64,000 nucleotides of DNA from Trypanosoma brucei (lineage: Eukaryota): the NCBI GenBank assembly GCA_000002445.1, contig CH464491.1, positions 288,001-352,000 on the forward strand. Direction: 5' to 3'. Made by a program: the position numbers and the translations under genes. Positions 15,416 to 46,373 of the stretch are shown in pieces. The notes under the pieces were generated by a model, which was not told the DNA's origin, did no database searches, and was given only the letters and a program-made list of their open reading frames with translations. Numbering within the stretch: the first letter of the stretch is position 1; each line of letters opens with the position of its first letter.

Positions 15416-15435
15416 TGTTTTTTTTTCTTGCATAG
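15416..15435 (+). promoter_or_regulatory. Poly-pyrimidine tract plus AG: putative spliced-leader trans-splice acceptor for gene 2
   Basis: gtttttttttcttgcatag sits 28 nt upstream of ATG 15463. Trypanosomatid mRNAs are trans-spliced at an AG downstream of a poly-Y tract. Confidence 0.35.
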
Positions 15436-15462
15436 TTACCGAAGAACAATACTGACAGAATT

Positions 15463-24400: not shown

Positions 24401-27400
24401 CGGACACTGTGTTTCATGGTCTGGAAGTGCAGCGTGCGGTGCTCAAGGCGCAAAATGCACGTCGGAACGCAGCGAAGATTTCTGATTTTGAGATGCGTTT
24501 AAATGAACGTGCTGTGCAACTGGCAGAAGTGCAACGGCAGCGGGAGCTGGAGGGGCTTGATCCCGAACCTGAGGGTATTCCTATATCTGTGCTTAATCCT
24601 CACGGAGATGTGGAATTTATTAAGCTTGTAACTGAGTTGCGTCAATTGTGTAGTGAGGGCAATAATGAGGGCATGTGTGATGTGCTGAAGACCACGATGA
24701 ACGACGTTGTGCATGCTCTGGCGAAGCGATTGAAGGAGGGAGATCGTGGCTACCTCGACCCTGAGCCCGAGGGTGTTCCGCTGTGTGTGCTGCCGTTGGA
24801 CACTGATGTGTTGTTTTTTAGGCTAGAGTGTGAACGTGTGACTCTGAAGGCACGTAATGCGCACTTAAACGCGAGGAGAATATGTGAGTTGGAGGACGCA
24901 CTCAATAACCGTGCAGTGGAACTTGCTCGCGAGCAACTGCGGCAGGACGTTAATGGTGTGGACGAGGCGCCGTGCGGTATTCCTCTGCAGCTGCTACGAC
25001 TTCACGAGGACAGTACCTTTCTTGTGATGGTGGATGATATTCGCACCCTAAGGAAGAATCCGGATGCTAACAGCGAGGCGATTGACGCCGTTGTCATGTC
25101 CATGAATGATCGCGCCTATGACGTTGCGATAGCTCAATTTGACCGTGGTTTCCTTGATCCTGAACCCGAGGGCGTTCCATTATGTATTTTGCCACTGGAT
25201 GACGATGAGTTGTTCCATGGTATGGAGGTGGAGCGGATTAAACTGAAGCTTACTGATGCGCGTCGCAATGCGCAGACGATTGGCACACTGGAGGAAGAAA
25301 TGAATGGCCGCGCACACGAACTCGCATTGCAGCAGTTGCGTGAGGAGCTTTCCGGTATTGATGCGGCACCTGAAGGCATTCCCTTGTCATTGTTGAGGGT
25401 GATGGAAGACCCTGCCTTTGCACTGATGGTGCTGGAGTTGCGTGACCTCAAGAAGGGCACCCAGGGTAATGCGGAACGGATTCGGGAGGTGGAGGACGCT
25501 ATGAACAACCGCGCTTACGAACTCGCGGATGGGCTGCTGGAGGGTGATCGCAGCTATCTAGACCCTATTCCCCTCGGCGTACCCGTCTCGGAACTTCCCT
25601 TGTGTTCCGACGAACCGTTTGCCACTATGGAGGTTGAACGAGCGAGGTTGAAGGCCGAAGACGCACGACGGAATGCAGCAGGGATTGGAGAACTTGAGTT
25701 GAAACTTAACAACCGCGCGAAGGAACTTGCGTCTGAACAACTATTACGTGATTTGGAAGGATTCCACGACGAGTATGAAGGGATTGACCTTGCGCACCTG
25801 AGGCCACACGACGACAAAGAATTTGTCTCCCTTGTACCGGAATTACGGAGGTTGAAAAGAGATGGTGACAAGGAAGCTGTTGAGCAACATATGCGCAGCA
25901 TGGATAGGCGCTTACGTGAGCTTGCGAAAGAGCTTGTTGGTGGTGATCTTTGGTTTCTTGACAAGGAACCGGAGGGTGTTCCCTTGACGTACTTACCTTT
26001 GGATGGGGACGAGATTCTCGACAAATTGCGCCATGAACGAGCTCAACTAAAGATACAAGATCCGCGGGGGAATGCTGACAGAATTGCGGAACTTGAGAGG
26101 AAAATGAATGAACGTATTCATGATCTAGCGAGGTGTATAGGAGATGAGGATTTTGATGGTGTTGAGGGAGAGCCTTGTGGCATTCCGTTGAGTTTACTCT
26201 CTCCTAGAGATGATGAGGTTGTTGCAAAACTTATCAATGACATTCGTAAAGTGAAATATTCTACAGGGGAGAAAAGCTCGAATGGTGCGCTGAATAACTT
26301 GCAGGTTGAACTTAGCAAACGTGTACACCAACTAGCAGAGGATGTTTTAATAAGAGACAGGGTGAAGTACCTAAACCAGTGCCCAGAAAGTGTTGATATA
26401 TCTTTTCTTCCCCTTAGTACTGACGAACAGTTTCGTGCCTTGGAGTTGGAGCGGGTCATTATTAATATCCAATCGAACGGTGACGACAAACGTTTGGACG
26501 GCTTAGAAGATATGCTTAACAAGAGAGCGCATGAGCTTGCAAAGGAACAGCTGCAGGAGGACCTAAGAGGACTGGAACAGGCTCCCCATGGTGTTCCACT
26601 TGACGTTCTTAAACCCCACAGCGACTTACGATTCATTAAAGAGGCGGAACAGCTACGGAACTTAAAAAGAGACCCGCTTCGTAATAAGAGGGAGATAGAT
26701 GACCTTGTGGAGCAAATGAATAATACTGTTGGTGAACTTGCCCTGAACTTACTACGTAGCGATCGTGACTACTTGCATTTGGCTCCTGAGGGAGTACCGA
26801 TTGAAGAGCTTCCACTGGAGGTCGATGCAAAGTTTTGTGCTTTGGAGGCGGAGCGTGCAATGTTAAAAGGCGAGAACAACCCGAAGAATGCGAGTATGAT
26901 ATTATCTTTGGAAGAGAAATTAAATGAGCGTGCTCGCCAGCTGGCTCAAGAGCAACTACTGGAAGACCTGAAGGAATTGAGTTCTTTTCAGCATTGTGTT
27001 CCTCTCTCACTTTTATCGCCTCATACTGACGTTCAGTTTGCTGCTGATGTTGCTGAATTTCGACGACTGAAAAAAGAAGGGGAGCAAAACACCCCTGCCA
27101 TTCAGGGCGTTGTCGGGAGACTTAACGCACGTGCGAATGAGCTCGCGGAAGAGTATTTGCGTACCGATCGCGCATCGTATCTTAACCCTGAACAACTTGG
27201 TGTGCCACTTGACTTGCTATCTTTGGACACAGACTCTGAGTTCGTGTCACTGGAAGCTGAGAGGCTAAAATTGTTGTCCTATCCGGCGGTTAACAATGAG
27301 CAAATAACTCGTTTGGAAGCTGAGTTGAATGCATGTGCCAAAAAATTGCTTGTTAAAAGATTGTATAAAGAAAGGAATTATCTGGATAGGGATCCACTTG

Positions 27401-30400
27401 GCGTGTCTCTGAATGCTTTACCTCTTGATACGGATTCGCAGTTTCATTTCATGGAGCTGAAGCGGTTGGCTTTGAAGGCAGGAGATCCCTGTTGTAATGA
27501 AGTCGCAATCAATACTTTGGAGGAGAGATTGAGTGACCGTGCATACGAGTTAGCAAGGGGGCAAATTGCGGAAGACTTGAGTGATCTGATAAGTGCTCCC
27601 AGGGGTATCCCGGTGAGTCTCCTTCATCCCCATAATGATCCAGAGTTTCATGAGATGGTTGTTAGTGTTCGACTGTTAAAGAGGGATTCTCAACCTGATC
27701 TATCGAAACTTATGAGGCTGGTCGATGACCTGAACAGGAGGGTAAAGGAGCTTGCAGACTGTGCTGTAGGTACATGCCGGAGAAAACTCAACCCACTCCC
27801 GGATGGTATACCCCTGCAGTCGCTTCCCCTAGATGAAGATCCATTATTCAGTCAGATGGAGCGTGATCTCGTTTCATTGTTCCTTGAAGATGAGAAAAAG
27901 AATGCCACTCGGATAACTAAGCTGGAGGACCGCCTCAATGAACGTGCGGCGAACATTGCTGTCTCTGTAAAGGCGAAGGATTTGGAGCAGTTGGAACAGA
28001 CGCCTTGCGGCATACCTATTGAGCTTTTAAGGCCCCATGAGGATTCAACTTTCGCCTCACTGGCAAATCAATATCGCATTTCCAAGCACCTGGGGGGGAG
28101 TGATTCACACGGCGTGAATGTTGGAACCCTGAACAAAAGGGCTACGGAAATAGCCATAGAGCTTCTGAGGGGCGATCAGAGTTACATTGATCGTCAACCT
28201 TGTGGGGTTCCTTTTTCCGCTTTGGAATTGGAGAAGGATCCCCAATTCCGCGACTTGCAAGTTCAGCGGATGAGGATGGTACTTTCAAATCCGAAACGCA
28301 ATCTCAACAGAATAACTGAACTTGAGGTACAACTTAACTCGTACGTTCAGAGGTGTGCGCAGGCGTTCTTGGCTGCTGATCGTGGATTTGTTGACAAAGA
28401 ACCTGGGGGTGTACCGCTCGCGGAGCTAGACCTTGACAATGATCCTCTCTTTCATCGAATGGAGGTAGAACGAGCAAAGTTGAAAATAAGAGAGCCAGTC
28501 ATCAACGCCTATCGGATACGTAATCTGGAGGAAAAATTGAACGATCGCGCTCATGAGTTGGCAGAGGAATTGTTGGCCACTGACCTTGAGGGAATTGCGC
28601 CCGAACCCGAGGGAGTTTTGTTGGCTTCCTTGCACCCGCACGACGATGCCGAATGTGCCTCCCTCATCGCCGCAAAACGGCGGTTGCTAAAGGAACCGTC
28701 CCAAAACATGGAAAAGATTAGGGACGTTCAGGAAAAGTTGAACAACCGCGTGTTTCAGTTGGCAAGGGAGGTAATTTCCAAGCTCCGTAAACAGTTGGTT
28801 CAAGAGCCGGAGGGGATTCCGCTGGAATTCTTACCGCTTGACGCAGATAATACATTTCGCAGCATGGAGAGAGATCTCCTTGCCTTGCAAGCTACTCCTC
28901 GACGTAATGATATTAAAGTGGAGACCTTGAGGGGGAGTCTGAACGAACGCGCGTGCGAGTTAGCAAGGGGTCAAATACAATGTGGCCGTGGATTCCTTAA
29001 CCCACAACCGGAGGGTGTTGATCTCGAGCACCTTCCCCTTGATGAAAATGTGGTGTTTCGAAGCAAGGAGGTAGAAAGGACCAAACTCAAAAGGTGCCCT
29101 CACGAAAATGCAGCCGCTATTACGCAGCTAGAAAGTGATCTGAATGCCCTCGTACACAGCATCGCAAAAGACATAAAATTATCAGACCGTGCATTTCTGA
29201 ACCTAACGTCACACGGTATCCCGAGGGAATTGCTACCACTTGATGAGGATCGGAGCTTCACGACGATGGAACGTCGGCGAAGGAGACTGAAACGTGACGG
29301 CAACCGTAGGGCCACTGCAATGATGAATCTGGAGGAAATGATGCAGGATCGTGTAGATGACTTGGCTTTTCGCATTTTGCGAGGGGATCGGGGTAACTAT
29401 GTCACTCTTCCTGATGGGATTGACGCAGCAGACATTCCTATAGATACTGATGAACGTTTCGGAACCTTGGAGTTGAGGCGCGCAGTCGTAATGTTACAGG
29501 GTTCGGATGATTGCAAGGAACAAGTGGGGAAGTTGGAGCACCAGATGAGCGAGCGACTACAAGAATTAGTCAGGAAGCGGGTAAAAGAAGACAGAGATTT
29601 CCTTGATCCGGAACCTGAGGGCATTCCATTGAAGGATATTCCACTTGACTCCGATGCCGAGTTTAGGCATCTTGAGGCGCGAAGAAGAAAAATCCGTCGC
29701 GAATCGCGTCGTCGAGTAACTAATGTCGCCGATCTGGAGGAGGCTATGAATGATCGCGCACATGTACTTGCAAGGTGTATCGTCGCTGAAGATGTCGGGC
29801 ACCTTCGGCCTGATTACCGAAGGATTCCAACCAACGAGCTGCATCTTCATAACGATGACACGTTTAGGTCACTCGCTAGCAAACGTCGGGAGCTGCTACA
29901 GGTGGGCGCAGTCACCGTTGATATTGCTGCCATCGAAGACGATATGGACATCCGGGCGCTGCAGGTTGCTGATGATGTAGTAGCGGAGGAACGGGCCTTT
30001 TTAGACCCACAACCCGGGGGCATGTTTATTGTTGACTTGCAGCTCGATGAAGATGAAACATTCTTTGCACTTGAGCGTGAGCGGCGGAGGATGAGAAAGG
30101 ATTTCCGTTTCGCTAAGCGGAACAAGGAGGCCATTAACGACCTTGAAGTCAGTCTTAATGAACGTGCTTGTGAATTGGCAAGGGAGGCGTTTTCAAAACA
30201 ACGCGATTTCATGGATCAGGAGCCCGAAGGTATTCCTCTAAAGGAGCTGCCTCTTGATAATGACTTGATTTTTAAAGATGCTGAAATTTCTCGATACGTG
30301 TTGTTGAAGGATCCAAAACATGCAGCGAATGAATTAATTGCCTTCGAAAACGTCATGAATTGTCGGGCGCATGAGCTAGCGAAGGAGATCATTGCAAAAG

Positions 30401-32859
30401 ATCGTGACTTCCTTGACCTTGAACCTGATGGCGTCCCTCGAGAAGAGTTGCCGCTTGATACAGATGAGAGGTTTCAGGTATTGGCACAAGAACATTTTCG
30501 ATTAAAAAGGCTGAATGGAAATCTGAAGTCCACTGAGGTAAGAGTTTTAGAGGAAAAAATGAATGAACGTCTGCACGAACTTGCCAAAGAATTCCTTCAA
30601 GAAAATCGTTCATTTCTTGATTCAGAACCAGAAGGCGTTCCGATAGCCGATGTTCCCTTTAGATGTGACCCTACTTTCGTCGAAATTGAACGAGAGTTAC
30701 TAAAGTTGAGCAGGAATCCGGTGGTGCCCGATAGCGCGAAGCAAATCGTTCGTGATCTTCTAAACAAGAGGTTGCATGAGATCGCTGCGGCTTTTTTGAA
30801 GAAAGAACGAATATTCCTCGACCCTGAACCCTTTGGTCTTCCATTGGCGTGTTTACCACTTAATTATGACCACATCTTGAATTTACTTGAACGAAAGCGG
30901 CGTGCTCTCAAAAAGAACGGGAGGGGAGAGATCAAAACAATTCGCTCCCTGGAGGAAGAGATCCAAGATCGTGTTAACGTTATTGCAGTGGAGTACTTGG
31001 AGATGGAACGGAGTTTTCTTGACCCCCGACCCCGGGGAGTGCCTTTGACCTTACTTCCTCTCAATGGTGATTGGCGTTTTCGTAGCATGGAGGTTGAGCT
31101 ACGGGCACTACGGAAGAACCAAACGAAAAACCGAAAGGATATTGAAAAAATAGAGGGAGACCTTAATCTTAGGGCGACGGAACTGGCAGGAGCCTTTCTA
31201 CAAAAACATCGTGTTTTTATCGATCCTGAGCCCCTTGGTGTGCCCATTGAAGAATTACCTCTTGACTCCGATTCCATCTTTCACAATATGGAGAGTATGT
31301 ATCTTCAAATGGGACGAGATATCCCGAGAGCAGCAGAACTTCGAAGAATGGAAGAGGAAATGAATGACCGAGTACGTGAACTCGCTACCGAGCATCTTCA
31401 GGGAGAACGCGCTTTTTTGAACCAAAAACCTCAAGGTATACCACTGTGTGACCTATCGCTTAACAACGATAGGCCGTTTCGTGACATGGAAAAGCGACTC
31501 CGTGCCCTTCGCAAGCACCCTCGTAGCAACACCGAAGGTATCAAAACTATTCAAGACGAAATGAACCAACGAGTAAATGCATTGGCTCGTCGCAAAATAT
31601 CTGATGATCGAAGCTATCTTCCGCTTGAGCTTCATGGCGTTCCCGTATATGACATTCCACTTGATGATGATAGGGAGTTCAGGGACCTTGAGATCAAACG
31701 GCACAGAGACAAAAACCTATCACCCGAGGACGCTGTGTTAGTTCAACGGGTTGAAGAAGAACTGGTCAGCCGCGCTCTGGATATCGCAAAAGATTTTGTG
31801 TCGAGAGAGCGCTCTTTTCTAGACTCTAACCCACAAGGAGTTCCAATAATCCGTCTTCCGTTGAGTACCGATGAGCAGTTCCGAGAATTAGAGACGAGGC
31901 GCCGCCACCTCAAAAAAGATCCGAGGAATGCGGGCATAGTCGCACTGCTAGAGCAGCAGCTCAGAGCGCGAGCACACGAGCTAGCAGAGGGACTATTAGG
32001 TTGGCAGGATGTTCAATTTCATGAAGCTAACCATTCCGTAGCGGAGATGTGGCCGCGAATCGGTGAGTTGTACCCTGAAGGAATCCGAAACTCTGTGTTT
32101 CCGGAAATAACACAGCCGGGCGATACTTCATCTGCGCCTGGTGAACTTGGCTATTTAGCACCTTTCATTGCCGCTCTCAGTCAACACCCGCCTCTAATTC
32201 ATCGGCTTCTGGAAACGAAAACACATCCCGTTAATGGTCCATATTCTTTCATCTTTTTTGATCCGAACAGCAACCCTGTTCGTGTTGACATTGATGACCG
32301 TGTGCCAGTGGATGCGAAGTGTGAGCCCAAGTTTACACGCGTGCCACACCGGTCTTGGTACCCGCTGCTGCTGGAGAAGGCATATGCGAAGTTTGTTGGT
32401 GGGTACGCAAAGCTCGACCAGTGCACACCACACGAAACCCTCCGTGATCTAACGGGCCGTCCAGTGCTACATATCCCTTTTGATGATCGACTCGCAGATG
32501 CAGCGAATACGGGTGACTTCCGATCTGTGAAATTCTGGAAGGGGATTAAAAGGAACCTCGCGGCTGGAGATGTGATCACATGCATAAGCAACCACGAAAG
32601 TGTGGACGGCCTTCACTCTCAATGCAGTTACGCTCTCCTTAGTGTAATCGAAACTGTGCATGAATCGAATGATGTCTCTGACATCGTGATCAAATTACAC
32701 AACTGCTACTACGATAGCCCGACATACGACGGCCCACTGTGTAACGATGATGATAACTGGACCGATGGTTTGAAGAGACTTTGCCATTATAATCCTGAGG
32801 AGGATGCACTTTACATACCTGTTCCTGTGTTTCTGCGTAACTTCTCGAGCATGCAGCGC
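15463..32859 (+). CDS. Giant calpain-like protein with four parts: two tandem N-terminal calpain-like modules (15463-17215 and 17340-19060), about 60 degenerate 68-70-aa GM6/FRA-type repeats (19080-31990), and a C-terminal calpain-like module (31990-32859). The 3' end is truncated by an N-gap.
   Basis: 5834-codon ORF beginning at the first ATG after a poly-T/AG signal (15416-15435). Module 1 has ...GSHYECFMLSALATL...WWPLLFEKAYAKFY... and module 2 has ...GEHFECCCLTAFAAL...WWPLLLEKAYAKFY...; each is followed by a domain-III-like GGNPT..TWR.NP.Y motif. The repeat core is FLDPEPEGVPL..LPLD.D..F..LE.ER..LK....N...I..LE..MN.RA.ELA. The ORF's apparent stop at 32965-32967 is a gap-edge artefact. Confidence 0.8.
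19080..31990 (+). repeat. Degenerate coding tandem repeats of about 204-210 bp (68-70 aa). They are the same family as the 1-10172 array but strongly diverged.
   Basis: The motif FLDPEPEG[VI]PL recurs roughly every 68-70 residues across about 4300 aa of the translated ORF. Confidence 0.8.
26634..27278 (+). repeat. 645-bp segment duplicated at 32960-33604 (immediately after the N-gap)
   Basis: gaggcggaacagctacggaacttaaaaagagacccgcttcgt ... gaggctaaaattgttg is identical in both places, apart from one 1-nt indel at the gap edge, one n, and one gag/gaa difference. Confidence 0.9.
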
Positions 32860-32959
32860 NNNNNNNNNNNNNNNNNNNNNNNNNNNNNNNNNNNNNNNNN
32901 NNNNNNNNNNNNNNNNNNNNNNNNNNNNNNNNNNNNNNNNNNNNNNNNNNNNNNNNNNN
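32860..32959. other. Assembly gap (100 N)
   Basis: Run of n. The flanking sequence has an ambiguous base (n at 33011) and a 1-nt indel relative to its duplicate. Confidence 0.95.
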
Positions 32960-35900
32960 ATTCATAAAGAGGCGGAACAGCTACGGAACTTAAAAAGAGA
33001 CCCGCTTCGTNATAAGAGGGAGATAGATGACCTTGTGGAGCAAATGAATAATACTGTTGGTGAACTTGCCCTGAACTTACTACGTAGCGATCGTGACTAC
33101 TTGCATTTGGCTCCTGAGGGAGTACCGATTGAAGAGCTTCCACTGGAGGTCGATGCAAAGTTTTGTGCTTTGGAGGCGGAGCGTGCAATGTTAAAAGGCG
33201 AGAACAACCCGAAGAATGCGAGTATGATATTATCTTTGGAAGAGAAATTAAATGAGCGTGCTCGCCAGCTGGCTCAAGAGCAACTACTGGAAGACCTGAA
33301 GGAATTGAGTTCTTTTCAGCATTGTGTTCCTCTCTCACTTTTATCGCCTCATACTGACGTTCAGTTTGCTGCTGATGTTGCTGAATTTCGACGACTGAAA
33401 AAAGAAGGGGAGCAAAACACCCCTGCCATTCAGGGCGTTGTCGGGAGACTTAACGCACGTGCGAATGAGCTCGCGGAAGAGTATTTGCGTACCGATCGCG
33501 CATCGTATCTTAACCCTGAACAACTTGGTGTGCCACTTGACTTGCTATCTTTGGACACAGACTCTGAGTTCGTGTCACTGGAAGCTGAAAGGCTAAAATT
33601 GTTGTTGGACAGAGATGGTTATGTGTCTTATATTAATGTGTTGGAAACTCGTTTGAATGATAGGGTGCGGGAGCTGTGTCGTCTGAGTCTACTTGATTTT
33701 CCCGAATTTTTGTTGGATGTGTCGAACTTTGGGGTTCCTTTGGAGGAACTGTGCCTCTTCGAGGATGATGGTTATCGGCGTCACATTTGTTCGTGGTACA
33801 AGCTTCGTAGGACCCCGGAGGTTGATAACGAACGCATTTCTTGTGAAGCTTGTATTGTTGAAATAGTTCGGGAAAAAGCAAAATTGTATACTGAGGAGAT
33901 ACTTCGATCTCTTCCTCTCGTATATCGTGGTATACCGCTACGTGATGCCGATTTGTTTCGGAACGATGGTTTTATTAATAGTGTTAAACGTTTTCGGCGC
34001 GCCGTTCGTGAAAAGCGGGATGAGAGTGAGATTGTGGAGGCCGAAGATAATATGAAAAATATAGCATTTGATATAATTGATGGTTTGATTTTAAAGGAAC
34101 GTGGCAGTCTTGACCAAGAGCCGGAAGGAATATCTATCAATAACGTTCCACTTGATTACGACAACGCCTATCTTGAGATGGAAGCAGAACTCCATAGTCT
34201 TTTAAAGCAACAATCCATGTGTGAAGCGGCTTCCATATTGCAACTCCGAAAAGCAATGAACGACAGGGTACACCATCTTGCCCTTATTGAGCTGGCGAAG
34301 ATGAGGACTTTCTTGGACCCTGAGATATTCGGCATACCCATTAAAGATCTTCGTCTTGAAGGTGACATGGACTTCCGGAACGCGGAAATTAGTCGATATA
34401 AAAAATTAAAAAATGAGGCAAATGCTGATGTGAAAGACCTTGAAGTTTTAATGACAGCACGTGCACTTGAGGTAGCGAAGGCTTTTGTTGCGCGAGAGAG
34501 AGCTTTTTTAGAGCCAGAACCACATGGGTTGTTGTTAGAGGAATTGCTTCTAGATACGCATAAGGTGTTTACGGATTTGGAGAGGGAGCGCCGAGTGCTC
34601 CTCAAGGAGCCAGGGTTGTGTGAAAACACTGTGAAAATCAAATCACTGCAGGACAAAATGAGAGCTGTGGTCAACGAGTTGGCGGTAGCGTACGTTGCAG
34701 AGTCCCGTAAGTTCCTAGATCCTGCGCCAGAGGGTGTTCCGCTTGAGGAATTGTCTTTAGACTCGAACGAGCTATTTATTGAATTGGAGAAAAGGCGGTT
34801 TGGGCTCCTGCGGGAGGGGAAGGGAGATGAGGGTAATCTTAAAGATGTCGAGAAAAGTATGCAGGACTGCATTCGTGAGTTGGCTAAGGGGCTTTTGAAG
34901 GAAAATCGTGCCTATCTCAACCAAAAGCCATTAGGTATACCACTTGATTATCTACCCCTCAACAACGACAAGAAGCTCCGTGAATTAGAGAGGAAACGAC
35001 GGGAACTTCTGAATACCTACGATAATGATTCTCCCCAAGTGAAGTCTATAGAGGGGGTGATTATTAAGCGAATTGACAAAATTGCTGCTCGTTACCTTGA
35101 AGGAGAGCGCTCCTTTCTGGATCCTTGTCCACAAACTGTTCCCCTGCGTTACTTGCCTCTTAACGCAGACACCAATTTTTGTTCCCTGGAACAGAGGCGG
35201 AGGGAGCTGCGCAGGGGAGGAGACACTGCCGAAGATGATGCAATGATAAAGGAACTGGAAATTCGTATAAATGATCGCGCTCATGAACTGGCTAAAGAGG
35301 TACTACACAATGGTCGGCTTTTTCTTCATCCTGAAATTCTCGGTGTCGCAGTTTCTGATATTCCTTTGAGTGATCACGAACCGTTTGTTCAACTTGAAGA
35401 AGCTCTGAGAAGAATCAAGGTCGACAACCCAATAAACAGCTTTATGGAGGTTGACCTAAGGGAGAAATTAAAGCAGTGTGCGAGACAGGTAACTGAAAAG
35501 ATGCTCGATGAAGAACGGAGTTTCTTGGATCAAAATCCTTTGGGTATTCCACTGAACAGTTTGATGCTGAATTATGACCCGAAAATGCAAGAACTCGAGC
35601 GAGTGAGAAGGAAGAAACTGCGGGATAAAGTGGACGCTAACGAGGAGGAGAGGGAGATGGTGAGGCGCGTCAACGAGATGGCGGAGGAGGAATTACGCCG
35701 TCAACGTATGTACCTTCCGGCCACACCATTGGGAATCCCATTCCAGTACTTGGGTCTTGACAGCGATGGGAAATTTGGCCAAATGGAAAATTTTCTACGC
35801 ACATTGAAAAGGGATCCTCTGTCGAAAGAAAAAGCGATTCGTGATCAGGAGAACGCAAATAGGCAGTACGTATTTAGAACGGCAGCGGAATACAAACGAA

Positions 35901-37993
35901 GGGAGCGCGCGTATCTTAACCCCGAGCCTAATGGAGTTTCCCTTAAGCGGCTATCCCTAGATACTGATCCCAAGTTTCAGAAGTTAGAACAAATGAGAAG
36001 AATGCTGATGCATAGCTCTGATTCAAATGATGCCCAAATTGGTCATTTGGAACATTTGGCTAACGAATATGTGCTTCAACTCGCTTTGCAACAGCTCGGG
36101 TGGCAAGACGCAGAATTCCATGACAGAAATAGGCACCTCGCAGACGATTGGGTGCGCATTAGCGAACTATACCCTGAAGGTAAATACGTACCCTTTGAAC
36201 CCACAAAAGCTAACGGTTGCTCGGTTGTCTCCGCGCCCAACGACGCAAGTTACCTGGCACCTTTTATCGCCGCTTTGAGCCGCTGTCCAGATATGCTAAG
36301 GCAATTATGTGATACAACATCACATCCCGTTAATGGTCCATATTCTTTCATCTTTTTTGATCCGAACAGCAACCCTGTTCGTGTTGACATTGATGACCGT
36401 GTGCCAGTGGATGCGAAGTGTGAGCCCAAGTTTACACGCGTGCCACACCGGTCTTGGTACCCGCTGCTGCTGGAGAAGGCATATGCGAAGTTTGTTGGTG
36501 GGTACGCAAAGCTCGACCAGTGCACACCACACGAAACCCTCCGTGATCTAACGGGCCGTCCAGTGCTACATATCCCTTTTGATGATCGACTCGCAGATGC
36601 AGCGAATACGGGTGACTTCCGATCTGTGAAATTCTGGAAGGGGATTAAAAGGAACCTCGCGGCTGGAGATGTGATCACATGCATAAGCAACCACGAAAGT
36701 GTGGACGGCCTTCACTCTCAATGCAGTTACGCTCTCCTTAGTGTAATCGAAACTGTGCATGAATCGAATGATGTCTCTGACATCGTGATCAAATTACACA
36801 ACTGCTACTACGATAGCCCGACATACGACGGCCCACTGTGTAACGATGATGATAACTGGACCGATGGTTTGAAGAGACTTTGCCATTATAATCCTGAGGA
36901 GGATGCACTTTACATACCTGTTCCTGTGTTTCTGCGTAACTTCTCGAGCATGCAGCGCTGTCACATAAACTGTGGCGACCGTCTGACTGCGCCTGGTGAG
37001 TGGACTGGGGTAAGCTGTGGAGGAAACCCGAAGTTCACAACTTTCCGGAACAACCCCATCTATCTTGTGGAAAACAAAACCTCCCGTCCCGTTACCATTC
37101 TTGCTGAGCTGCGGCATCATGCGCCAGCATACCGTGACCCTGACGATGTAAATCACTATCACCAGTCTGGGCTTGCACTGCTAAAGGCGATAAACACGCG
37201 TATGCCTGTGAGTCCGATCTTGACAAGTGTGACACACCGCTTTTTGCATAGGGGCATGATGTTGGATGCACGGGAGGTGTGTGCTCAAATGGAGTTGCCT
37301 CCGAGTACCACGTGCTATCTCGTCCCATATACGTTGGGTCGTGAGAACTATGGAAAGTTTCACATATCTGTGTACCCCGGTCTTGCAAAGGTGAATCTTG
37401 CCCCTCTTCGAACTGCGGCTCTCTTTGCCTCTCCTGTTGTTATTTCTATGTCGTTGAAAACGGAACTGCGGAACGGTGTGAAGGTTGAGTTTGTTGTGAG
37501 CAGAGCATGTGATGCTCATGTTTTGCTTTGTCAGAGACGACCAAAGGTTATTGATGTATGTAAAAGTGATTTACTCGGTGATTTCAGTGTTAACATGGCA
37601 GTTTATGATGAAAATGGAATCCTGTTGATGAACACAGGGGAGCCTAGGAATGCGCGGGAGGTTGCGGTTTCCTTCCGAGTTCCCCAGCAAGGTTTGTATT
37701 CTGCTGTAATTATGGCTCTTGGCGTGGATCGCCGAGGAAATCATAGAGGATGTCCCTGCCACCTAACGATATTTACGTCGAAAAAAGCGAAAGTGAGACT
37801 CCTTGGTACGGTCCCTAATTTTCCCAGGCGTGCAACACCAAGAACCTCTATCCGAAGTCAGTCAGCGGAAATCATGACACCAGTTAGTTTAACACCAAGA
37901 GACGGTCCCAAAACTGCAGGTTCGTTTCATTTGCCGTATATTTCCGGTGGACAGTCAACGACAGACTCTCCTTTTGTAATGGGCATAAAATGA
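32960..37993 (+). CDS. Third calpain-like repeat protein (5' end missing in the gap). It has degenerate repeats (32960-36100) and a C-terminal calpain-like module with a distinct tail (36100-37993).
   Basis: ORF of the track (32804..37993); the real sequence starts at 32960 in the same frame. The first 645 bp are identical to 26634-27278 of gene 2. The C-terminal module 36318-37115 is near-identical to 11233-12030 of gene 1. The tail after TILAELRH diverges from gene 1. Confidence 0.65.
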   Translation: MHKEAEQLRNLKRDPLRXKREIDDLVEQMNNTVGELALNLLRSDRDYLHLAPEGVPIEELPLEVDAKFCALEAERAMLKGENNPKNASMILSLEEKLNERARQLAQEQLLEDLKELSSFQHCVPLSLLSPHTDVQFAADVAEFRRLKKEGEQNTPAIQGVVGRLNARANELAEEYLRTDRASYLNPEQLGVPLDLLSLDTDSEFVSLEAERLKLLLDRDGYVSYINVLETRLNDRVRELCRLSLLDFPEFLLDVSNFGVPLEELCLFEDDGYRRHICSWYKLRRTPEVDNERISCEACIVEIVREKAKLYTEEILRSLPLVYRGIPLRDADLFRNDGFINSVKRFRRAVREKRDESEIVEAEDNMKNIAFDIIDGLILKERGSLDQEPEGISINNVPLDYDNAYLEMEAELHSLLKQQSMCEAASILQLRKAMNDRVHHLALIELAKMRTFLDPEIFGIPIKDLRLEGDMDFRNAEISRYKKLKNEANADVKDLEVLMTARALEVAKAFVARERAFLEPEPHGLLLEELLLDTHKVFTDLERERRVLLKEPGLCENTVKIKSLQDKMRAVVNELAVAYVAESRKFLDPAPEGVPLEELSLDSNELFIELEKRRFGLLREGKGDEGNLKDVEKSMQDCIRELAKGLLKENRAYLNQKPLGIPLDYLPLNNDKKLRELERKRRELLNTYDNDSPQVKSIEGVIIKRIDKIAARYLEGERSFLDPCPQTVPLRYLPLNADTNFCSLEQRRRELRRGGDTAEDDAMIKELEIRINDRAHELAKEVLHNGRLFLHPEILGVAVSDIPLSDHEPFVQLEEALRRIKVDNPINSFMEVDLREKLKQCARQVTEKMLDEERSFLDQNPLGIPLNSLMLNYDPKMQELERVRRKKLRDKVDANEEEREMVRRVNEMAEEELRRQRMYLPATPLGIPFQYLGLDSDGKFGQMENFLRTLKRDPLSKEKAIRDQENANRQYVFRTAAEYKRRERAYLNPEPNGVSLKRLSLDTDPKFQKLEQMRRMLMHSSDSNDAQIGHLEHLANEYVLQLALQQLGWQDAEFHDRNRHLADDWVRISELYPEGKYVPFEPTKANGCSVVSAPNDASYLAPFIAALSRCPDMLRQLCDTTSHPVNGPYSFIFFDPNSNPVRVDIDDRVPVDAKCEPKFTRVPHRSWYPLLLEKAYAKFVGGYAKLDQCTPHETLRDLTGRPVLHIPFDDRLADAANTGDFRSVKFWKGIKRNLAAGDVITCISNHESVDGLHSQCSYALLSVIETVHESNDVSDIVIKLHNCYYDSPTYDGPLCNDDDNWTDGLKRLCHYNPEEDALYIPVPVFLRNFSSMQRCHINCGDRLTAPGEWTGVSCGGNPKFTTFRNNPIYLVENKTSRPVTILAELRHHAPAYRDPDDVNHYHQSGLALLKAINTRMPVSPILTSVTHRFLHRGMMLDAREVCAQMELPPSTTCYLVPYTLGRENYGKFHISVYPGLAKVNLAPLRTAALFASPVVISMSLKTELRNGVKVEFVVSRACDAHVLLCQRRPKVIDVCKSDLLGDFSVNMAVYDENGILLMNTGEPRNAREVAVSFRVPQQGLYSAVIMALGVDRRGNHRGCPCHLTIFTSKKAKVRLLGTVPNFPRRATPRTSIRSQSAEIMTPVSLTPRDGPKTAGSFHLPYISGGQSTTDSPFVMGIK

Positions 37994-40167
37994 TTTTTTT
38001 TTCCAGCCTCCAGGCAAGTGAAACCATCGTTATCGTTTTTTTTGTTTTTGTGATCGTTTTTTTTTTGTTCTGTCGTCTCTTTCGTCATTTTGTGTGGGAT
38101 CCTCAAAGTATAAGTGCTTTTTTTCCTTTCTTTCGACGGCCTTGTCACGCGGTCGACATCGTATTATCGTAGCGCAAATGCGCGATTAATGTTTTCATTC
38201 TTTGTATTGATGCACCCAACGGCGACAAGTATAGTAATATTCTACCACTATTCTTCGCAAACGCACTTTCCCCCCTTTTTTATTTGTAGTGTGTTAAAAT
38301 GGTAGCAGTTTGCTGACTTGCGTGTGTATGAGGTATATACCTTCATTCTATTTGTTATACTCGCTTTTTTGCTATATTCGTTATATTCTCTGCCATTTTA
38401 CCTCCTTTACTCTTAGCAAGTGTCCACTTTTCCGTATACTTACTCATTTTTTTACACGTGTTCCTCTCTTTTTTTTTTCTTGAGTGTAATATCTTGCCCT
38501 TACATGTTTGTATTTATTTAACCTTTATCACCGCACGCTTCGTTGGCCAGATGATTGTAGTTTGCGCCCTATGATTTTTAGCTTTTTTGTGTGTGCTTTG
38601 CGTTCACACTTTTATGCGACGCATTTATTCCGTTGTATCGATCATTTTGTATCGTGTCACTGTAACATCAACAACGGACAATTAAAATGAATTTGTTCAC
38701 ATATTTATCACTCGTCCGGCGCTTTCAAGAATTTTTTTGAAAAGACAATTTTTACTGCTAGTTTGCATAATTTAATTCTTCCTAAAGGTGGTTCGGCAAC
38801 TGTAACGGGTCTGATGGGACATAAAATACTTTTTTTTAAAAAAAAGAAAAGGAAGGAAGAAAAAAAAAGACAAAAAGAAATGAGGAATGACGCTGCAATA
38901 ACTGACAGCCTCTCATTTATTTCGTCATTCCTTTTACATGCGCTTGTGTTTATTATTTTCGTATCTTTCTGAAGGGGGAAGAGAGAGAAGGATAATTCGG
39001 CATTGGGCATTTGAAGGAAATGACAGGAAGGGTGGTGAAGGGAATTGTTTCGTTTTCATTTTGAAGTAGAGACAATAATCGCAAATAAACGGAATTATTA
39101 TTATTATTATTTAGTGCTTTGTTTCAAAAATACGGACCTCTTTTTTTTTTGTATGTGTGCTTTCTTATTTTGATTTTCCTATTTTTTCTCCTCCTTTTTT
39201 TTAAAAAAAAAGAAACTTTATCTGCCCTGTTTTTTTTAATTCCACAGGAACAGATGCACGTTTTGTTGATGCAACGGCAATTGATGCGGATTTTAAGCAT
39301 ATCAGCACGCTGCCATAGTCCAAAGAGGGAGTAAAACATCATCTAATGTTTTTATTTTGAGTATTTATTTGGTATTCCCTTACACACTATTTTTTTTCGG
39401 GTCTATTTCCCTGTCGCCGACCGTTTTTTTTTCCCCCTCTTTCATTCTATTTTTTCCATTTTCATTGTTAGTGAACCAATGATATCAAGATTATTTATAC
39501 TTTTTGTTGTTATTGAACAAGTGCGAATTGTTTTACTCCAAATCCAATTCCTTCAAGGTGCTTTTTTTAAAAAAATATTATTACTCTTCATGTTAACATT
39601 AGAGTTAAATATTTTATTGTTCCCTCTTCTTTTCCCTTGCTGTTTTTTCTTCCTTCTCGTTGGGGAACCAAAACGTGCTGAACAAAAAAAAACAATCAAC
39701 AAAAGGGAAGGTGTAGGACAATAGGAAAGATTAGAAAGACCAGAGAAAGAAGCCGAATCAGTACGAAGGCCAAGCAGAGAGATTGCAGTAGTTAAATAAG
39801 AGAGGAATAAGCAAGAAGAAGGATAACGCGGTTTCATACGTTTATTTTTTGTGTGGTCCTGACAACACCGGGCTCTCTGTGTTTAAAACAAATTTACTGG
39901 TACTTGTGTGACCAAGTGTGTCGAGCCATTAAAACGCACAGGACATTAGACAGCTAAGAGAACAAGGAAGAGGTTTAAGTTGAATAAAGAGGGTTATTGT
40001 GAGCAGAAAATATCATCACTGTACCGCCGAGATAAATCTAAAAAGAAAAAAAAAAGAGAAATTAACAACCCTTTCCTCCAGAGAAAAAAAAAAAGAGGAA
40101 AAGAAGAGGGCGAAAGAAGAGTCAAAATAAACAATCAAGATATTGGTGGTAGAAAGTGTTTTGAATC

Positions 40168-41166
40168 ATGCAAGGGCAAAACCAAGCAGCAGTGGATGGC
40201 ACTATGGCCTACACCTTTCAGCACCCACCACAGGGGTTCTTACACGCACAATACAGGGATCCTCACAGCAGTGTAGGCCGTAAGCAATATGCCAATATTA
40301 TGCATGACCGTCGTGTGTATCGCGGGAATACGTACGCCGCCGTGCCCATGTCAACATATGCGCGAGACGAGGAAGAGCGAGTGGTTCGCGAGGCAAACAG
40401 ACGTCGCAAGGAACTTCAGCAGCGGGCCACTTCTATAAAGCGTCGTAAAGAACTTGACGCAGCCCAACGGAAACTTGCGACTCCGCCCCCCGTTGTTGGA
40501 CGGCAGCACATAGAAGTACAAACGGAGGAATTCCTCGAGGAACTGAAGGATGAGGTGGAAGTGGTTCAGCAGGAAACACAAACTGATCCCCTTCTCGACC
40601 GCCCTGCGACACCACCGTATGTTCCTGTAAAGTCTGGTCGTGATGCGGAGTCGCAAATTAATGAAGGAGATTTGTTTCACTTCGACGACGCCGTTGACCC
40701 GATTCTCGATGTTATGGTTGGAAAGACACTTGAACAAGCGATGTTGGAGGTATTGCAGGAGGAAGAACTGGAACTTCTGCGGCAGCAGCAACTGGAGTTT
40801 GAGCAACGACGCAAGGAGGAGTTACTGGAGGCACAGCGACTTGAAGCTCGTGAGAAACGCCTCTTTGAGGAGAAGGAGCGGCGGAAAAAGCAGGAAATCG
40901 AGCGCATCAAGCGCGAGAAGGCTACACGTGAGAAGCTCCAGGCCCGTCAGTTTGCCAAGATGTATTTAATGAACCTCGAAAACCGTGTCTTTGCAAGGCT
41001 TCAGGATGAGGGCTGGTTTCGTGATCGCGTATTACACGAGGTGGAGTTTGACTTCTTCCCGTGGCTCATGGATCAGGTCGCGGTGGAACTTGAAAAGAAG
41101 CAGCGGGCGCGTGTGTTGGTAGACGATCTCATTCGCCAAGTAGTTGCCATACAGTTGAATAGCTGA
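40168..41166 (+). CDS. RSP3: Radial spoke protein 3 homolog (axonemal)
   Basis: 332-aa ORF. ANIMHDRRVYRGNTYA near the N-terminus, and the segment TQTDPLLDRPATPPYVPVKSGRDAESQINEGDLFHFDDAVDPILDVMVGKTLEQAMLEV followed by an E/R/K-rich coiled coil, match my recollection of the conserved RSP3 core. My recollection that trypanosome RSP3 lies next to calpain-like genes also supports this. Confidence 0.65.
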   Translation: MQGQNQAAVDGTMAYTFQHPPQGFLHAQYRDPHSSVGRKQYANIMHDRRVYRGNTYAAVPMSTYARDEEERVVREANRRRKELQQRATSIKRRKELDAAQRKLATPPPVVGRQHIEVQTEEFLEELKDEVEVVQQETQTDPLLDRPATPPYVPVKSGRDAESQINEGDLFHFDDAVDPILDVMVGKTLEQAMLEVLQEEELELLRQQQLEFEQRRKEELLEAQRLEAREKRLFEEKERRKKQEIERIKREKATREKLQARQFAKMYLMNLENRVFARLQDEGWFRDRVLHEVEFDFFPWLMDQVAVELEKKQRARVLVDDLIRQVVAIQLNS

Positions 41167-41185
41167 GATATAAATAAATAAATAA

Positions 41186-41220
<35 letters not shown>
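41167..41220. repeat. (AAAT)n then (TA)n microsatellite that starts directly after the RSP3 stop codon
   Basis: gatataaataaataaataaataaatatatatatatatatatatatatatata read directly. Confidence 0.9.
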
Positions 41221-42292
41221 CATATGCATAAATAAAATATGTGTATTTACATGTATTTATTCACTTTTTCTACTGTTGGAGAGGTAAAAGGAGAGTATGC
41301 ACTGACCAACGGCTAGTGCTGTGGTTAAGCGGCACGATACAATGAAGGGAAGCGAAGGAGGAGCGGGATATCGTCGGCCCGCAACCGGTTAGAGCAGAAA
41401 TAATGAATGAAAGACACGTGAGAAGGAAAGAGGATGTTAGATGTTAATCTTTTCCTTTAAGCGATTCCATCCTCTCTTCTGCTGCACTCTCTACTTGTAC
41501 GATGTCAATTTCTCACTCCTTCAACTTTTTAGGCTTGTGAATTTGCTCGCTATTTTTATCATCCTTTTTGTTTTTTTGTGTGTGTTTGTGGTTGTCGCCT
41601 TTCTTCCTACAGTCACCGCCCCCCTATTCGCTTCTCTTTCGGATCACGCTCTCCTTCTCGTCATTTGAGCATATGTCACCGCCAGTGTTATTGGCATGTT
41701 TCAGAGAGTTAAACCATTTCAAACTTTCTTTTTACTGCAGACGCTGTGTAGAACGGTTAGAGACAAGTTTATGGTTGGAAATGGCGAGAAACTTATTGTT
41801 GATCTTCTTACGGTGCTGCTGCTTCCGCAAATAGTTGTTTTACTCGCCGTTTTCACATGAGACTGTTTTGTTTCGTTTTTTGCAATTTTCTCACCAACAG
41901 TCGCTGTTGTCGTTGCGTGTGCGAAGTCATTTTTTTTTTTTTTTGATTCGTGCCGTGTCGTGTTCGGTCATATTTTCTTTGTGTGTGCTTGTGACGTCTT
42001 TTCTTCGTTCCGTCTCATGTAGTTGAAGCTATTGAGGGAACAAGCGAATACGTAAAGCACTCGTGCACAAAGAAATCTTTAAAGGAAAAACGAAAGAGAG
42101 AAAAAACACGTGTCAGCTCTTGAGGTAATTCAGAGAGGCTACATGTATATTTATAGCAGTTCTGTCACTACCAAGATTGCCATGCACGTGAAGAAGAAAA
42201 AAAAAGGAAACTGAGGGGTACTTGTATATTGAGGGATGATAATTAGGAGGGGGTGAAACATGAGGCAGCACCTTCATGTTTAATATAAGAAT

Positions 42293-42953: not shown

Positions 42954-43049
42954 TTGTTGACCGACACCAGGACACAAAAAAACCGGAGAATCACCGTCTT
43001 AGCCGTTCCGAGTTTCAAAAAAGGAAATCAAAAAAAAAAAGGCGGTAGT

Positions 43050-46000: not shown

Positions 46001-46373
46001 GCAGTTGGAGGCGGGTCGCATGTCCGAGGAACTGAAACGGGAGATTGAACAGCCTCGCAACAGCTTTGGTTACGTAACAGCGAATCAGCGATGTATAATT
46101 TGCCGCTCAACTTTGCTTCAGGGGGATGCCCCGTTCTTCATTTACCCCCGCTGTTGCCATGCAGTACACGAGTCTTGCGCGGTGGCAAAATTAGAGAGCA
46201 TTGGGGGGTTGGAGGCTTTTGTTGTGGACGAAGGACTTCCAAAAAACTTCTTGGACGGCATTAACTCGACACGTGATTTGGCCCAGATGGATTGCGTGAT
46301 TTGCGGCGAAACTGCAATATTGGAGATTGACATGCCATTATTTACAGAGGACGATTCTTGGTTAGTGTTGTAG
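43050..46373 (+). CDS. Vps11/Vps18-family HOPS/CORVET tethering-complex subunit with a C-terminal RING-H2 finger
   Basis: 1108 aa counted from the first ATG (the track ORF starts at an upstream TTG, 42954). The N-terminal region is beta-propeller-like. The C-terminus reads CIICRSTLLQGDAPFFIYPRCCHAVHESCAV ... CVICGE, typical of Vps11/18/41 RING-H2. A poly-pyrimidine/AG signal lies at 42931-42953. Confidence 0.5.
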   Translation: MKALSDDSLPSFRLGSQGNLAAVPTKGPSPRFELAPIVNELQQQIISADCQSDVIAMLGASGRLVLRDTMQDGPPLVTSVRNPYRVFMSPDGNHTLVSTTDGELCYFSVRNRKSTGHFTLHNRGASGNEAARNNVASCVCWLSSDAGFIGSPRTSISGAEGVSGSGSGWQLGSGTVYCLVGTKLGGLVFLVKVEVHGDGGSVKLTCFRSLQLPDANPQQQVGSVEVEHINSLWVLFVSTPTVLYRVEGLMDSPADFFDSITASTGMWNIRRVSTAGNASASGAVVLYRPGIGMPAQSYAWASVAGVVHGLLNSRSDGSSANSGEAALVELTDGGSVVNEQLLDLEHVVVPKSSSNESAAITAAVPDHSFRGESQLPVGATLVDVGLTAFHMLLLYRDRFIVLNHPAGLSWRGASSTLQGDWPYLCEIEERIRFDPFRYSKRESPLRGIVRDTAARKVYVFDANTFWELQVEQEHRQQSELFLDRAVNTRESSHLRNRYFRAAYQLCKYDKTMRNKVQFLRGRFLLQIGAIRRAMDVLAECDFFEDVYHLLMSFRNSKVLQLYVEKRYKNLVRRVTEGKGVQMQLACLLALIVVLRLDTIARSENITDAPSATAVAETLTSGLTAFIEETLEERLPMFSCVGYVNLIAQLLEEQSRPELVLRFAERMNKMRYVITYHVSRANYVEAANVLGAHARRIDMRSTWYSLAPILMKKCPIQFTKAMLRAVSRDAYDMPYLLLNAEKLIPVFTQYEPHMNEDPDNQEHQVVLFLDNCITKLGCDSPAVHNYYLSLVVKHDTKRLDEFLQSSLYYDIRFALRQCLESRRYRQCVRLYSQLHLYEDALRAALDCAELTQDETPGGASSAIVGSGVNECAATSLVSGADLGCNEGEERDAWSRLSVAQELLLSLPDDMPLPRRKALWLIVAQHVIQKNDNRAALRILADSCGVLKLEDILEEMNDVSVMENFKGAICKSLEVYASLTKQLREKQLEAGRMSEELKREIEQPRNSFGYVTANQRCIICRSTLLQGDAPFFIYPRCCHAVHESCAVAKLESIGGLEAFVVDEGLPKNFLDGINSTRDLAQMDCVICGETAILEIDMPLFTEDDSWLVL

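Follow-up and report, generated by a model that had tools for sequence, protein, structure and literature searches.

The 100-N gap between the second and third of three tandem giant calpain-like genes in the T. b. brucei TREU927 reference very probably conceals about 13.1 kb of sequence, including a second copy of a long shared block, the three genes being genuine tandem paralogs whose order in the reference is right. Such a gap is commonplace in assemblies and carries no new biology; the complete arrangement can be found in assemblies already public. The stretch of 64,000 nucleotides analysed here (the window) corresponds to the ClpGM6 locus on chromosome 11 and contains two runs of 100 N each, at 8584-8683 and 32860-32959, and a lone N at 33011.

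Three calpain-like genes and the duplicates at the gap edges

All three genes lie on the forward strand. Gene 1 (9-12914) is the C-terminal part of ClpGM6 and comprises GM6 repeats, a calpain-like module and a stop codon. Its repeats are 204-bp/68-aa GM6 units in a near-perfect array, inside which the first gap (8584-8683) is located; the sequence before that gap does read MKEN for MNEH (AATGAAGGAGAATT vs AATGAACGAGCATT), as had been remarked in a reading of the sequence only. The published ClpGM6 antibody peptides KASDSRSFLDPMPE and ERRKLIAEDREGN are present in the gene 1 repeat, and both the peptides and the GM6 array are confined to gene 1. Genes 2 and 3 are paralogues with divergent DUF7623 repeats, not ClpGM6.

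Gene 2 (15463-32859; XP_828204.1, 5799 aa, partial) is cut within its C-terminal Peptidase_C2 module. XP_828204.1 has the length of the gene 2 translation, clusters with the N-terminal fragment of gene 2 from T. b. equiperdum IVM-t1, matches the gene-2-specific repeat stretch mid1 (see below) at 100% and shares 99% identity with the full-length protein of T. b. gambiense DAL972. The 3′ part of gene 3 (32960-37993; XP_828205.1 / Tb11.v4.0001) encodes 14 DUF7623 repeats, a Peptidase_C2 module, a tail of its own and a stop. The observation that gene 2 lacks a natural stop before the gap and gene 3 lacks a start holds; a mechanical list of open reading frames offers a TAA at 32965-32967 and an ATG at 32804, both of them artefacts of the N run and of a 1-nt deletion. 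According to the module alignment gene 2 ends about 345 aa before the ends of genes 1 and 3. The Peptidase_C2 profile (PF00648) matched the N-terminus of gene 2 (3.9e-71), its C-terminal module (2.1e-20), gene 3 (2.5e-20) and gene 1 (7.1e-21). In pairwise alignment to m-calpain only, the catalytic triad Cys-His-Asn was incomplete in the examined modules: the first module of gene 2 has retained Cys and Asn and not His, and the C-terminal module carries Cys in place of the triad His. Direct protein searches with mid1 or with the N-terminal region of gene 2 returned no close T. brucei-group proteins, which is no sign of their absence; such proteins surfaced when a T. congolense relative was used as the query and the clusters were listed.

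The gap is flanked by two duplicates, both directly observed in the window. A segment internal to the repeat array of gene 2 (A, 26631-27277) reappears at the start of the contig that follows the gap (A′, 32960-33605). By local alignment 26637-27277 equals 32965-33605 over 641 bp, with A26683/N33011 and G27261/A33589 as the only differences, and five further bases (26631-26635 and 32960-32964) match across a 1-nt deletion (ATTCATTAAAGAG vs ATTCATAAAGAG). The total of two differences and one indel over 646 bp is far beyond chance. G27261/A33589 occupies a third-codon position (GAG/GAA, Glu) and is silent, and the identity is lost abruptly past 27277/33605. The duplicate of 645 bp described by the sequence-only reading, with one silent change, one n, a 1-nt edge indel and divergence behind it, is real, its coordinates having been off by 1-3 bases.

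At the opposite edge, the last 638 bp before the gap (B, 32222-32859) match 36321-36958 within gene 3 at 100% and open a tract of 1090 bp that occurs in the C-terminal calpain module of gene 2 and of gene 3 alike. The gene 3 copy of this tract (B′, 36321-37410) has an in-window partner for 36321-36958 only, the remainder being known from IVM-t1 and DAL972. At 32222/36321 the identity jumps to 100% from a visibly low level upstream (about half of the aligned bases, estimated by eye and not computed). This mirror-image duplicate had been overlooked by the sequence-only reading.

Within the gene 2/gene 3 region no further matches at 90% identity or more were found besides A/A′ and B/B′, and the other repeat units of the two genes are only about 30-44% identical at the protein level. 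Between the duplicates lie the gene-specific repeat stretches, mid1 of gene 2 (27278-32221, 4.9 kb) and mid2 of gene 3 (33606-36320, 2.7 kb), which share about 30-44% of their amino acids. A T. congolense orthologue of mid1 is 55-57% identical, and mid2 is 98.7-98.8% conserved at the amino acid level in DAL972 and IVM-t1.

Sequence corresponding to the gap in other Trypanozoon genomes

The gapless counterpart of the region is provided by a composite from T. b. equiperdum IVM-t1 (CM010682.1, 275461-326924; 51,464 bp, no N). IVM-t1 has been assembled de novo and the reference has been used only for chromosome building; its long reads, as described, are modest, with a mean of 8.5 kb vs the 11.8-kb repeat. 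Positions 1603-20153 of the composite correspond to 14300-32859 of the window (99.3%), 22136-33903 to 15508-27277 (99.2%) and 33257-41480 to 32960-41182. Both flanking contigs are thus directly seen to be colinear with IVM-t1, and the counterpart of the gap (20154-33256) is 13,103 bp long vs the 100 N of the window. It consists of the 3′ end of the gene 2 coding sequence (999 bp, the final 332 codons and the stop), a spacer of 935 bp and the 5′ coding sequence of gene 3 (11,169 bp), with a distinct gene 3 start and a second copy of the block that forms the 5′ part of gene 2.

In the window this block extends over 11,770 bp (15508-27277) and encodes two calpain-like modules and divergent DUF7623 repeats. 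Its second copy in IVM-t1 makes up the 5′ two-thirds of gene 3, is 11.77 kb long, is 99.86% identical to the 5′ part of gene 2 and ends exactly at the end of the duplicate. The two IVM-t1 copies differ by 10 substitutions and 5 indels spread over the block, with private alleles mostly in the gene 3 copy. The 645 bp at the gap edge are the visible end of this near-identical block of about 11.8 kb common to genes 2 and 3, A′ being the final 646 bp of the gene 3 copy, and it is the contig end, and no biological border, that fixes how long the duplicate appears in the window. Of the proposal that tandem paralogs share a 645-bp conversion tract, the paralogs are borne out by IVM-t1 and DAL972 and the extent is not, the 645 bp being part of the 11,770-bp block. 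We infer that the 100 N stand as a placeholder for about 13 kb in which gene 2 would finish, the spacer would follow and gene 3 would run through its first 11.2 kb; judged by two other Trypanozoon genomes (IVM-t1 and DAL972), the gap of TREU927 should have the same content as the interval in IVM-t1. Contigs of T. equiperdum OVI and Logan short-read contigs are broken at or before the repeats and give no information on the gap.

The genes reconstructed across the gap were found to be coherent in their reading frames. Gene 2 is a single open frame of 6131 aa, 99.2% identical to CBH17004.1 of DAL972, with 332 aa absent from the window. Gene 3 is likewise a single open frame, with a predicted 5401 aa, about 3,724 N-terminal codons of which fall in the gap; its specific first 48 nt begin ATGGCGTGTCAAGAGGTAAATAGTGAAG. 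The tails of the two genes are 71% identical over an alignment of 278 aa, in which the first ~150 aa are identical and the rest has clearly diverged.

The order A-mid1-B, gap, A′-mid2-B′, with both duplicates ending at contig ends, is also the pattern that would arise if genes 2 and 3 were haplotypes or alternative assemblies of one locus, A and B flanking allelic mid1 and mid2. One locus with two alleles was at first favoured, when a piece of IVM-t1 ran from gene 2 sequence via a single A into mid2, and was dropped when the IVM-t1 sequence further upstream showed the piece to be the second copy, placed in tandem behind a complete gene 2. This option, which the sequence-only reading had also raised, is discarded because both versions stand in tandem on one contiguous, gapless sequence with different tails and starts, and because two paralogue-specific SNPs in segment A are common to IVM-t1 and DAL972. 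Between the two versions IVM-t1 has a gene 2 tail unlike that of gene 3, the spacer of 935 bp and another context around the start codon, and DAL972 has the same tail, spacer and gene 3 start. Moreover, the divergence of mid1 and mid2 is far beyond allelic variation and mid1 has an orthologue of its own in T. congolense. We consider a single locus extremely improbable.

In DAL972 gene 2 is full-length (6131 aa), and behind it come the spacer, the gene 3 start and the shared block as in IVM-t1. The two genomes are colinear over 25 kb at 99.8%, and DAL972 supports the first ~4.8 kb of the IVM-t1 gap sequence. Since the gapless IVM-t1 sequence is colinear with the window and DAL972 independently has gene 2 and the gene 3 start, we conclude with good confidence that three real tandem paralogs are present. 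Past the gene 3 start and 2934 bp of the shared block, DAL972 continues with a copy of the ClpGM6 N-terminus, GM6 repeats and a gap before A′/mid2 is reached. It had been considered as a second full witness and was dropped, as its agreement with the expected layout ends 2.9 kb into gene 3.

This arrangement, together with the provenance of the second-copy interior (equivalent to 18442-26630 of the window) from one assembly only, IVM-t1, speaks for a third gene that is real and whose 5′ part, in the TREU927 gap, is not a full gene-2-like half; it might for example be a ClpGM6-type 5′ region with GM6 repeats as in DAL972, or a copy that is shortened or rearranged. However, the sequence immediately before mid2 in TREU927, DAL972 and IVM-t1 is of gene 2 type (A′) and does not consist of GM6 repeats, and the spacing of the block in IVM-t1 is exactly colinear (11,771 bp vs 11,770 bp). 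Besides, the divergent DAL972 segment is a 99.88% duplicate of that genome's own upstream ClpGM6 N-terminus and adjoins gaps, as is expected for a repeat-induced mis-join. Because it is such a duplicate beside gaps, and starts at the 2.9-kb block common to all three genes, the switch into ClpGM6-type sequence may well be a misassembly. Gap content of another kind is considered unlikely.

Probable origin of the break and proposed mosaic structure of genes 2 and 3

If the gap conceals the second block copy, genes 2 and 3 would be mosaics. Each would start with its own first 15-16 codons, followed by the near-identical 11.77-kb block, with N-terminal calpain-like modules plus repeats, up to 27277/33605; the remainder would be built of the gene-specific mid1 or mid2, the identical 1090-bp tract in the C-terminal calpain module and a distinct tail. 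The two copies of the long block were probably inseparable for the assembly, so that the first contig would keep a single collapsed copy and then run on into mid1; the stretch 15508-27277 of the window is probably a collapse of two copies. The first contig halts 638 bp into the second shared tract, and the second contig begins 646 bp before gene 3 becomes unique. Both contig ends would lie about one read length inside a repeat, with low-quality bases at the edge, and the lengths of the edge segments would reflect the read length.

The 1-nt deletion after 32964 and the N at 33011 are regarded as read-end errors because both are absent from the equivalent gene 3 copy of IVM-t1, and the poor contig-end quality suspected earlier is thus corroborated. 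Duplicates of about one read in length, at contig ends with evident base-calling errors, might also be chimeric or misplaced reads, or the scaffold join might be wrong, and the duplicates would then be uninformative on the genome; there is moreover no overlap to explain the A′/mid2 junction. Against this, the A′/mid2 and mid1/B junctions both recur in IVM-t1 and DAL972, and A and A′ differ at one TREU927 position and at paralogue-specific positions in other strains. The scaffold mis-join put forward by the sequence-only reading is rejected because the order and orientation of the contigs agree with the gapless assembly, and the chance that the edge segments are such artefacts is very slight.

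The borders of the shared tracts are sharp: at 32222/36321, in the tails and at the A/mid boundary near-identity passes into deep divergence within alignable sequence. The paralogues may be older than the identical blocks, whose likeness could then be due to gene conversion or to unequal exchange; the comparison bearing on their age covered the mid1 side, with its T. congolense orthologue at 55-57%.

Known systems and consequences for the gene models

The break probably corresponds to a collapsed segmental duplication at a gap, with no difference of kind: the contig ends lie about a read length inside sequence present elsewhere in the scaffold (near-copies A/A′ and B/B′), the gap is of placeholder size and two copies are found in an independent, contiguous assembly (IVM-t1). 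At the same locus, problems with the TREU927 gene model of ClpGM6 (Tb927.11.1090 / Tb927.11.1100) have been described (Hayes et al. 2014, PMC4121973; Billington et al. 2023, PMC9981465). In both cases giant calpain-like genes with 68-aa-type repeats are fragmented at reference gaps, leaving one fragment without a stop and the next without a start, and gene 1 is the C-terminal fragment concerned. The ClpGM6 break, however, falls within one gene, in its near-perfect tandem array of 204-bp units, whereas that of genes 2 and 3 separates neighbouring paralogues, is due to the 11.8-kb dispersed duplicate and the 1.1-kb tract and conceals the end of one gene, the spacer and the start of the next. No paper describing the gene 2/3 gap was found in the literature searched for the gene identifiers.

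Tandem paralogues in trypanosomatids can be homogenised by gene conversion in tandem arrays. Genes 2 and 3 resemble them in having blocks of at least 99.86% identity, sharp borders, far-diverged neighbouring stretches and adjacent positions on one strand. They differ in that the block is unusually long (11.8 kb), and may have arisen by conversion or by recent partial duplication, and in that it starts 45-48 bp inside the coding sequence, so that the N-terminal peptides are distinct. The architecture of Peptidase_C2 (+Calpain_III) twice, DUF7623 repeats and then Peptidase_C2 is that of other kinetoplastid calpain-like proteins, and relatives from T. cruzi, Leishmania, T. congolense and others are 45-70% identical; this likeness bears on the nature of the genes, not on the gap finding.

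The value of the finding is practical and consists in gene-model correction only. In the most-used T. brucei reference two gene models are cut short: the gene 2 model is without 332 C-terminal residues and the stop, Tb11.v4.0001 is without about 3,700 N-terminal residues and the start, and chromosome 11 is probably short of about 13 kb at the gap. As annotated, C-terminal tagging of gene 2 and N-terminal tagging of gene 3 cannot work, and reads, peptides, RNAi fragments and primers from 15508-27277 are not assignable to one gene.

It is conceivable, although we regard it only as a tentative suggestion, that the three genes are kept as deliberate mosaics in which ongoing conversion holds the shared N-terminal part near-identical. 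Conversion would then, in an equally speculative detail, begin precisely 45-48 bp after the ATG and cover about 2.9 kb across all three genes and 11.8 kb between genes 2 and 3, while each gene might, no less doubtfully, retain 15-16 initial residues, a repeat 'spacer' and a C-terminal tail of its own. If true, the proteins would be targeted or assembled through a module common to them all, their differences would lie in length and tail, and published RNAi, tagging or expression data for one gene model would report on two or three genes.

Identity of the locus and of its calpain-like genes

The TREU927 protein XP_828204.1 (5799 aa, "calpain-like cysteine peptidase, putative, partial") has the length of the gene 2 translation (15463-32859, + strand) and is 100% identical to it over mid1 (27278-32221), and XP_828205.1 (1649 aa, "hypothetical protein Tb11.v4.0001") is 100% identical to gene 3 (32960-37993, + strand) over mid2 (33606-36320); both were obtained from protein cluster membership listings. 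Gene 1 (9-12914, + strand) encodes near-perfect 68-aa repeats containing both peptides used for the ClpGM6 antibody, and these matches together place the window on chromosome 11 of the TREU927 reference (T. b. brucei). ClpGM6 is known to have been broken by its repeats into two models, an N-terminal one that has no stop and a C-terminal one that lacks a start (PMC4121973, PMC9981465). Gene 1 is the C-terminal fragment of that split; the N-terminal end of ClpGM6 is outside the window, further upstream.

The Pfam order of gene 2 is Peptidase_C2, Calpain_III, Peptidase_C2, DUF7623 repeats and a Peptidase_C2 module that the gap truncates; gene 3 comprises 14 DUF7623 repeats and Peptidase_C2. In pairwise alignments with mammalian calpains the first calpain-like module of gene 2 (15463-16500) has Cys and Asn but lacks His, and in gene 3 (C-terminal module, 36080-37993) the His position aligns with Cys, an incomplete catalytic triad that agrees with the published description of ClpGM6. 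At nucleotide level the C-terminal calpain module encoded by gene 1 (11019-12254) is 91% identical to its gene 2 counterpart and 89% to its gene 3 counterpart, a similarity below that of the near-identical tracts and above that of the diverged parts. Downstream (40168-61509) lie ordinary single-copy genes on the same strand, among them a radial spoke 3-like gene (40168-41166, +), a Vps18/Pep3-like gene (42954-46373, +) and a protein kinase gene (50713-51699, +), colinear with DAL972, IVM-t1 and OVI at 98.6-99.6%.

Duplicated segments at the edges of the gaps

N occurs in the window in two runs, each exactly 100 long (8584-8683 and 32860-32959), and once on its own at 33011. The first run sits within the 204-bp GM6 repeat array, where two substitutions in the final bases before it give MKEN in place of MNEH, an error correctly pointed out in the sequence-only reading. 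The repeat phase jumps across this run, so some number of GM6 repeats is missing; Southern blots suggest at least 55 repeats (PMC4121973).

At the second gap, alignment bore out the earlier description of a post-gap duplicate of the gene 2 interior with an edge indel, one N and one silent change. Segment A of gene 2 (26631-27277) recurs as A' (32960-33605): 26637-27277 equals 32965-33605 over 641 bp with only A26683/N33011 and G27261/A33589 different, the latter silent since it lies at a third-codon position (GAG/GAA), and five more bases match at the extreme gap edge across a 1-nt deletion (ATTCATTAAAGAG vs ATTCATAAAGAG). Divergence is immediate past 27277/33605. The other edge is duplicated as well: the last 638 bp of the contig before the gap (segment B, 32222-32859) are 100% identical to 36321-36958 in gene 3, within B' (36321-37410), and directly upstream of B the C-terminal calpain modules are alignable yet clearly diverged (about half of the bases match, by eye), with identity rising abruptly to 100% where B begins. 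Across the gene 2/gene 3 region no segment pair is at least 90% identical besides A/A' and B/B', and the other repeat units share only about 30-44% protein identity, which excludes chance or ordinary repeat similarity.

As also noted from sequence alone, the open frame from 15463 meets no stop before the gap, and the frame closing at 37993 lacks a start on the far side of it; module alignment ends gene 2 about 345 residues short of the ends of genes 1 and 3. ORFs called mechanically are fused across the N run (32804-32967), where the "stop" TAA 32965-32967 and the "start" ATG 32804 are artefacts, because 100 N is not a multiple of 3 and the edge carries the 1-nt deletion. The resulting layout is A-mid1-B, gap, A'-mid2-B'-tail, with mid1 (4944 bp) and mid2 (2715 bp) deeply divergent from each other. 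Taken alone, it would be as compatible with two versions of one locus as with tandem paralogues.

The gap region in other T. brucei-group assemblies

Protein searches with the window sequence missed near-identical T. brucei-group proteins present in the collection, which surfaced via a T. congolense query and cluster listing; missing close matches in those searches thus do not mean absence. Other assemblies were anchored on the radial spoke 3-like gene and then on proteins from related clusters. From chromosome 11 of T. b. equiperdum IVM-t1, three overlapping pieces (CM010682.1 275461-326924) were merged into a 51,464-bp composite with zero N. Its positions 1603-20153 match window 14300-32859 (99.3%, containing A, mid1 and B), 19516-20605 the full 1090-bp tract B (36321-37410), 22136-33903 window 15508-27277 (99.2%, 11,771 bp), and 33257-41480 window 32960-41182, the 3' part of gene 3 and downstream sequence.

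The 100 N thus correspond to composite 20154-33256, 13,103 bp, comprising 999 bp that complete gene 2 (332 codons, with a tail of its own and a stop), an AT-rich spacer of 935 bp and 11,169 bp from the 5' coding part of gene 3. The gene starts differ (gene 3 MACQEVNSEVLDSDVV vs gene 2 MNYQAITEIPDSNTI), and gene 3 turns gene-2-like 48 bp past its ATG. Within IVM-t1 the two block copies share 99.86% identity; the 10 substitutions and 5 indels that separate them are scattered along the block, and private alleles lie mostly in the gene-3 copy. This copy reads ATTCATTAAAGAG at the edge and A at the N position, so the indel and N33011 of the window are read-end errors. IVM-t1 was assembled de novo (PacBio and MiSeq), the reference serving only for chromosome building; its additional 13 kb therefore cannot derive from TREU927. 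Its annotation splits genes 2 and 3 into fragments (2333, 1386, 1641 and 603 aa; 228, 1159, 687, 2209 and 771 aa), which fits residual indel errors in the assembly, and the models are unusable as given.

T. b. gambiense DAL972 (FN554974.1; pieces L011 29381-38396 and L001 1-1922) runs from gene 2, full length there (6131 aa, CBH17004.1), to the gene-3 start and 2934 bp of the shared block. It is colinear with IVM-t1 for 25 kb at 99.8%, spanning the gene 2 tail, the spacer, the gene-3 start and the initial 2.9 kb of the block, and two positions in segment A separate the gene-2 from the gene-3 copy identically in both strains. Past the 2934 bp, DAL972 repeats its own ClpGM6 N-terminal region at 99.88% identity (L011 31510-34939 = L011 1-3429), followed by GM6 repeats, a gap and A'/mid2; its contig starting with A' likewise continues into mid2. 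The switch beside gaps is probably a repeat-induced mis-join, because gene-2-type sequence, not GM6 repeats, precedes mid2 in all three strains. The DAL972 ClpGM6 N-terminal region matches gene 2 at 100% (17637-18441/L011 1-805) and 99.6% (19482-20021/L011 1579-2118), so near-identical N-terminal calpain-like sequence is common to all three tandem genes. Elsewhere in DAL972, window 36788-37617 is present on both flanks of a 100-N gap (L001 6511-6610), whose contigs overlap and were left unmerged.

Tandem paralogues and a probable collapsed block

These comparisons argue strongly that the window holds three real tandem paralogues, one of the options proposed earlier, whose long shared block was very probably collapsed to one copy with the gap as an undersized placeholder: IVM-t1 and DAL972 have the gene 2 tail, the spacer and a separate gene-3 start. 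That genes 2 and 3 are alleles or alternative assemblies of one locus is highly improbable, since copies in tandem with different tails and starts exclude it for both strains. Chimeric or misplaced reads, or a wrong scaffold join, are just as implausible, both junctions reappearing in two other strains and order and orientation agreeing with IVM-t1. Somewhat less remote, though still unlikely, is a TREU927 gap with content other than the full gene-2-like 5' half, such as the DAL972-like ClpGM6 layout: DAL972 follows the gene-2-like path for only 2.9 kb and IVM-t1 is the one witness for the gene-3 copy interior (equivalent to 18442-26630), against which stands the gene-2-type sequence before mid2 in all three strains.

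With three paralogues, scaffold order and orientation would be correct and the gap far too small, the assembler having retained a single copy of the block. Genes 2 and 3 would be mosaics of distinct first codons, an 11.77-kb common block, own repeat stretches, a 1090-bp common tract and distinct tails. The contig ends run 638-646 bp into shared segments, presumably about one read length. The 645-bp segment, a "recent internal gene-conversion tract" in one option of the sequence-only reading, is a real duplicate, but its length would be set by the contig end, the tract being the visible tip of the block. Joined to the IVM-t1 continuation, 15463-32859 reads as a single 6131-aa open frame that shares 99.2% identity with the DAL972 protein; joining the gene-3 start to 15508-27277 and 33606-37993 gives one of 5401 aa. 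The mid1 orthologue in T. congolense (55-57% identity) suggests that the gene-specific parts are old. The block identity may reflect either gene conversion or a recent partial duplication.

The gap at 32860-32959 is very probably a standard collapsed-duplication gap, and the split ClpGM6 model one gene upstream is a documented problem of the same kind. Literature searches, including gene identifiers, found no paper on this gap; the complete structure of genes 2 and 3 is already in public assemblies, and the result is unsurprising. Its use lies in correcting two gene models, which is relevant to the tagging, knock-down and quantification of genes 2 and 3.
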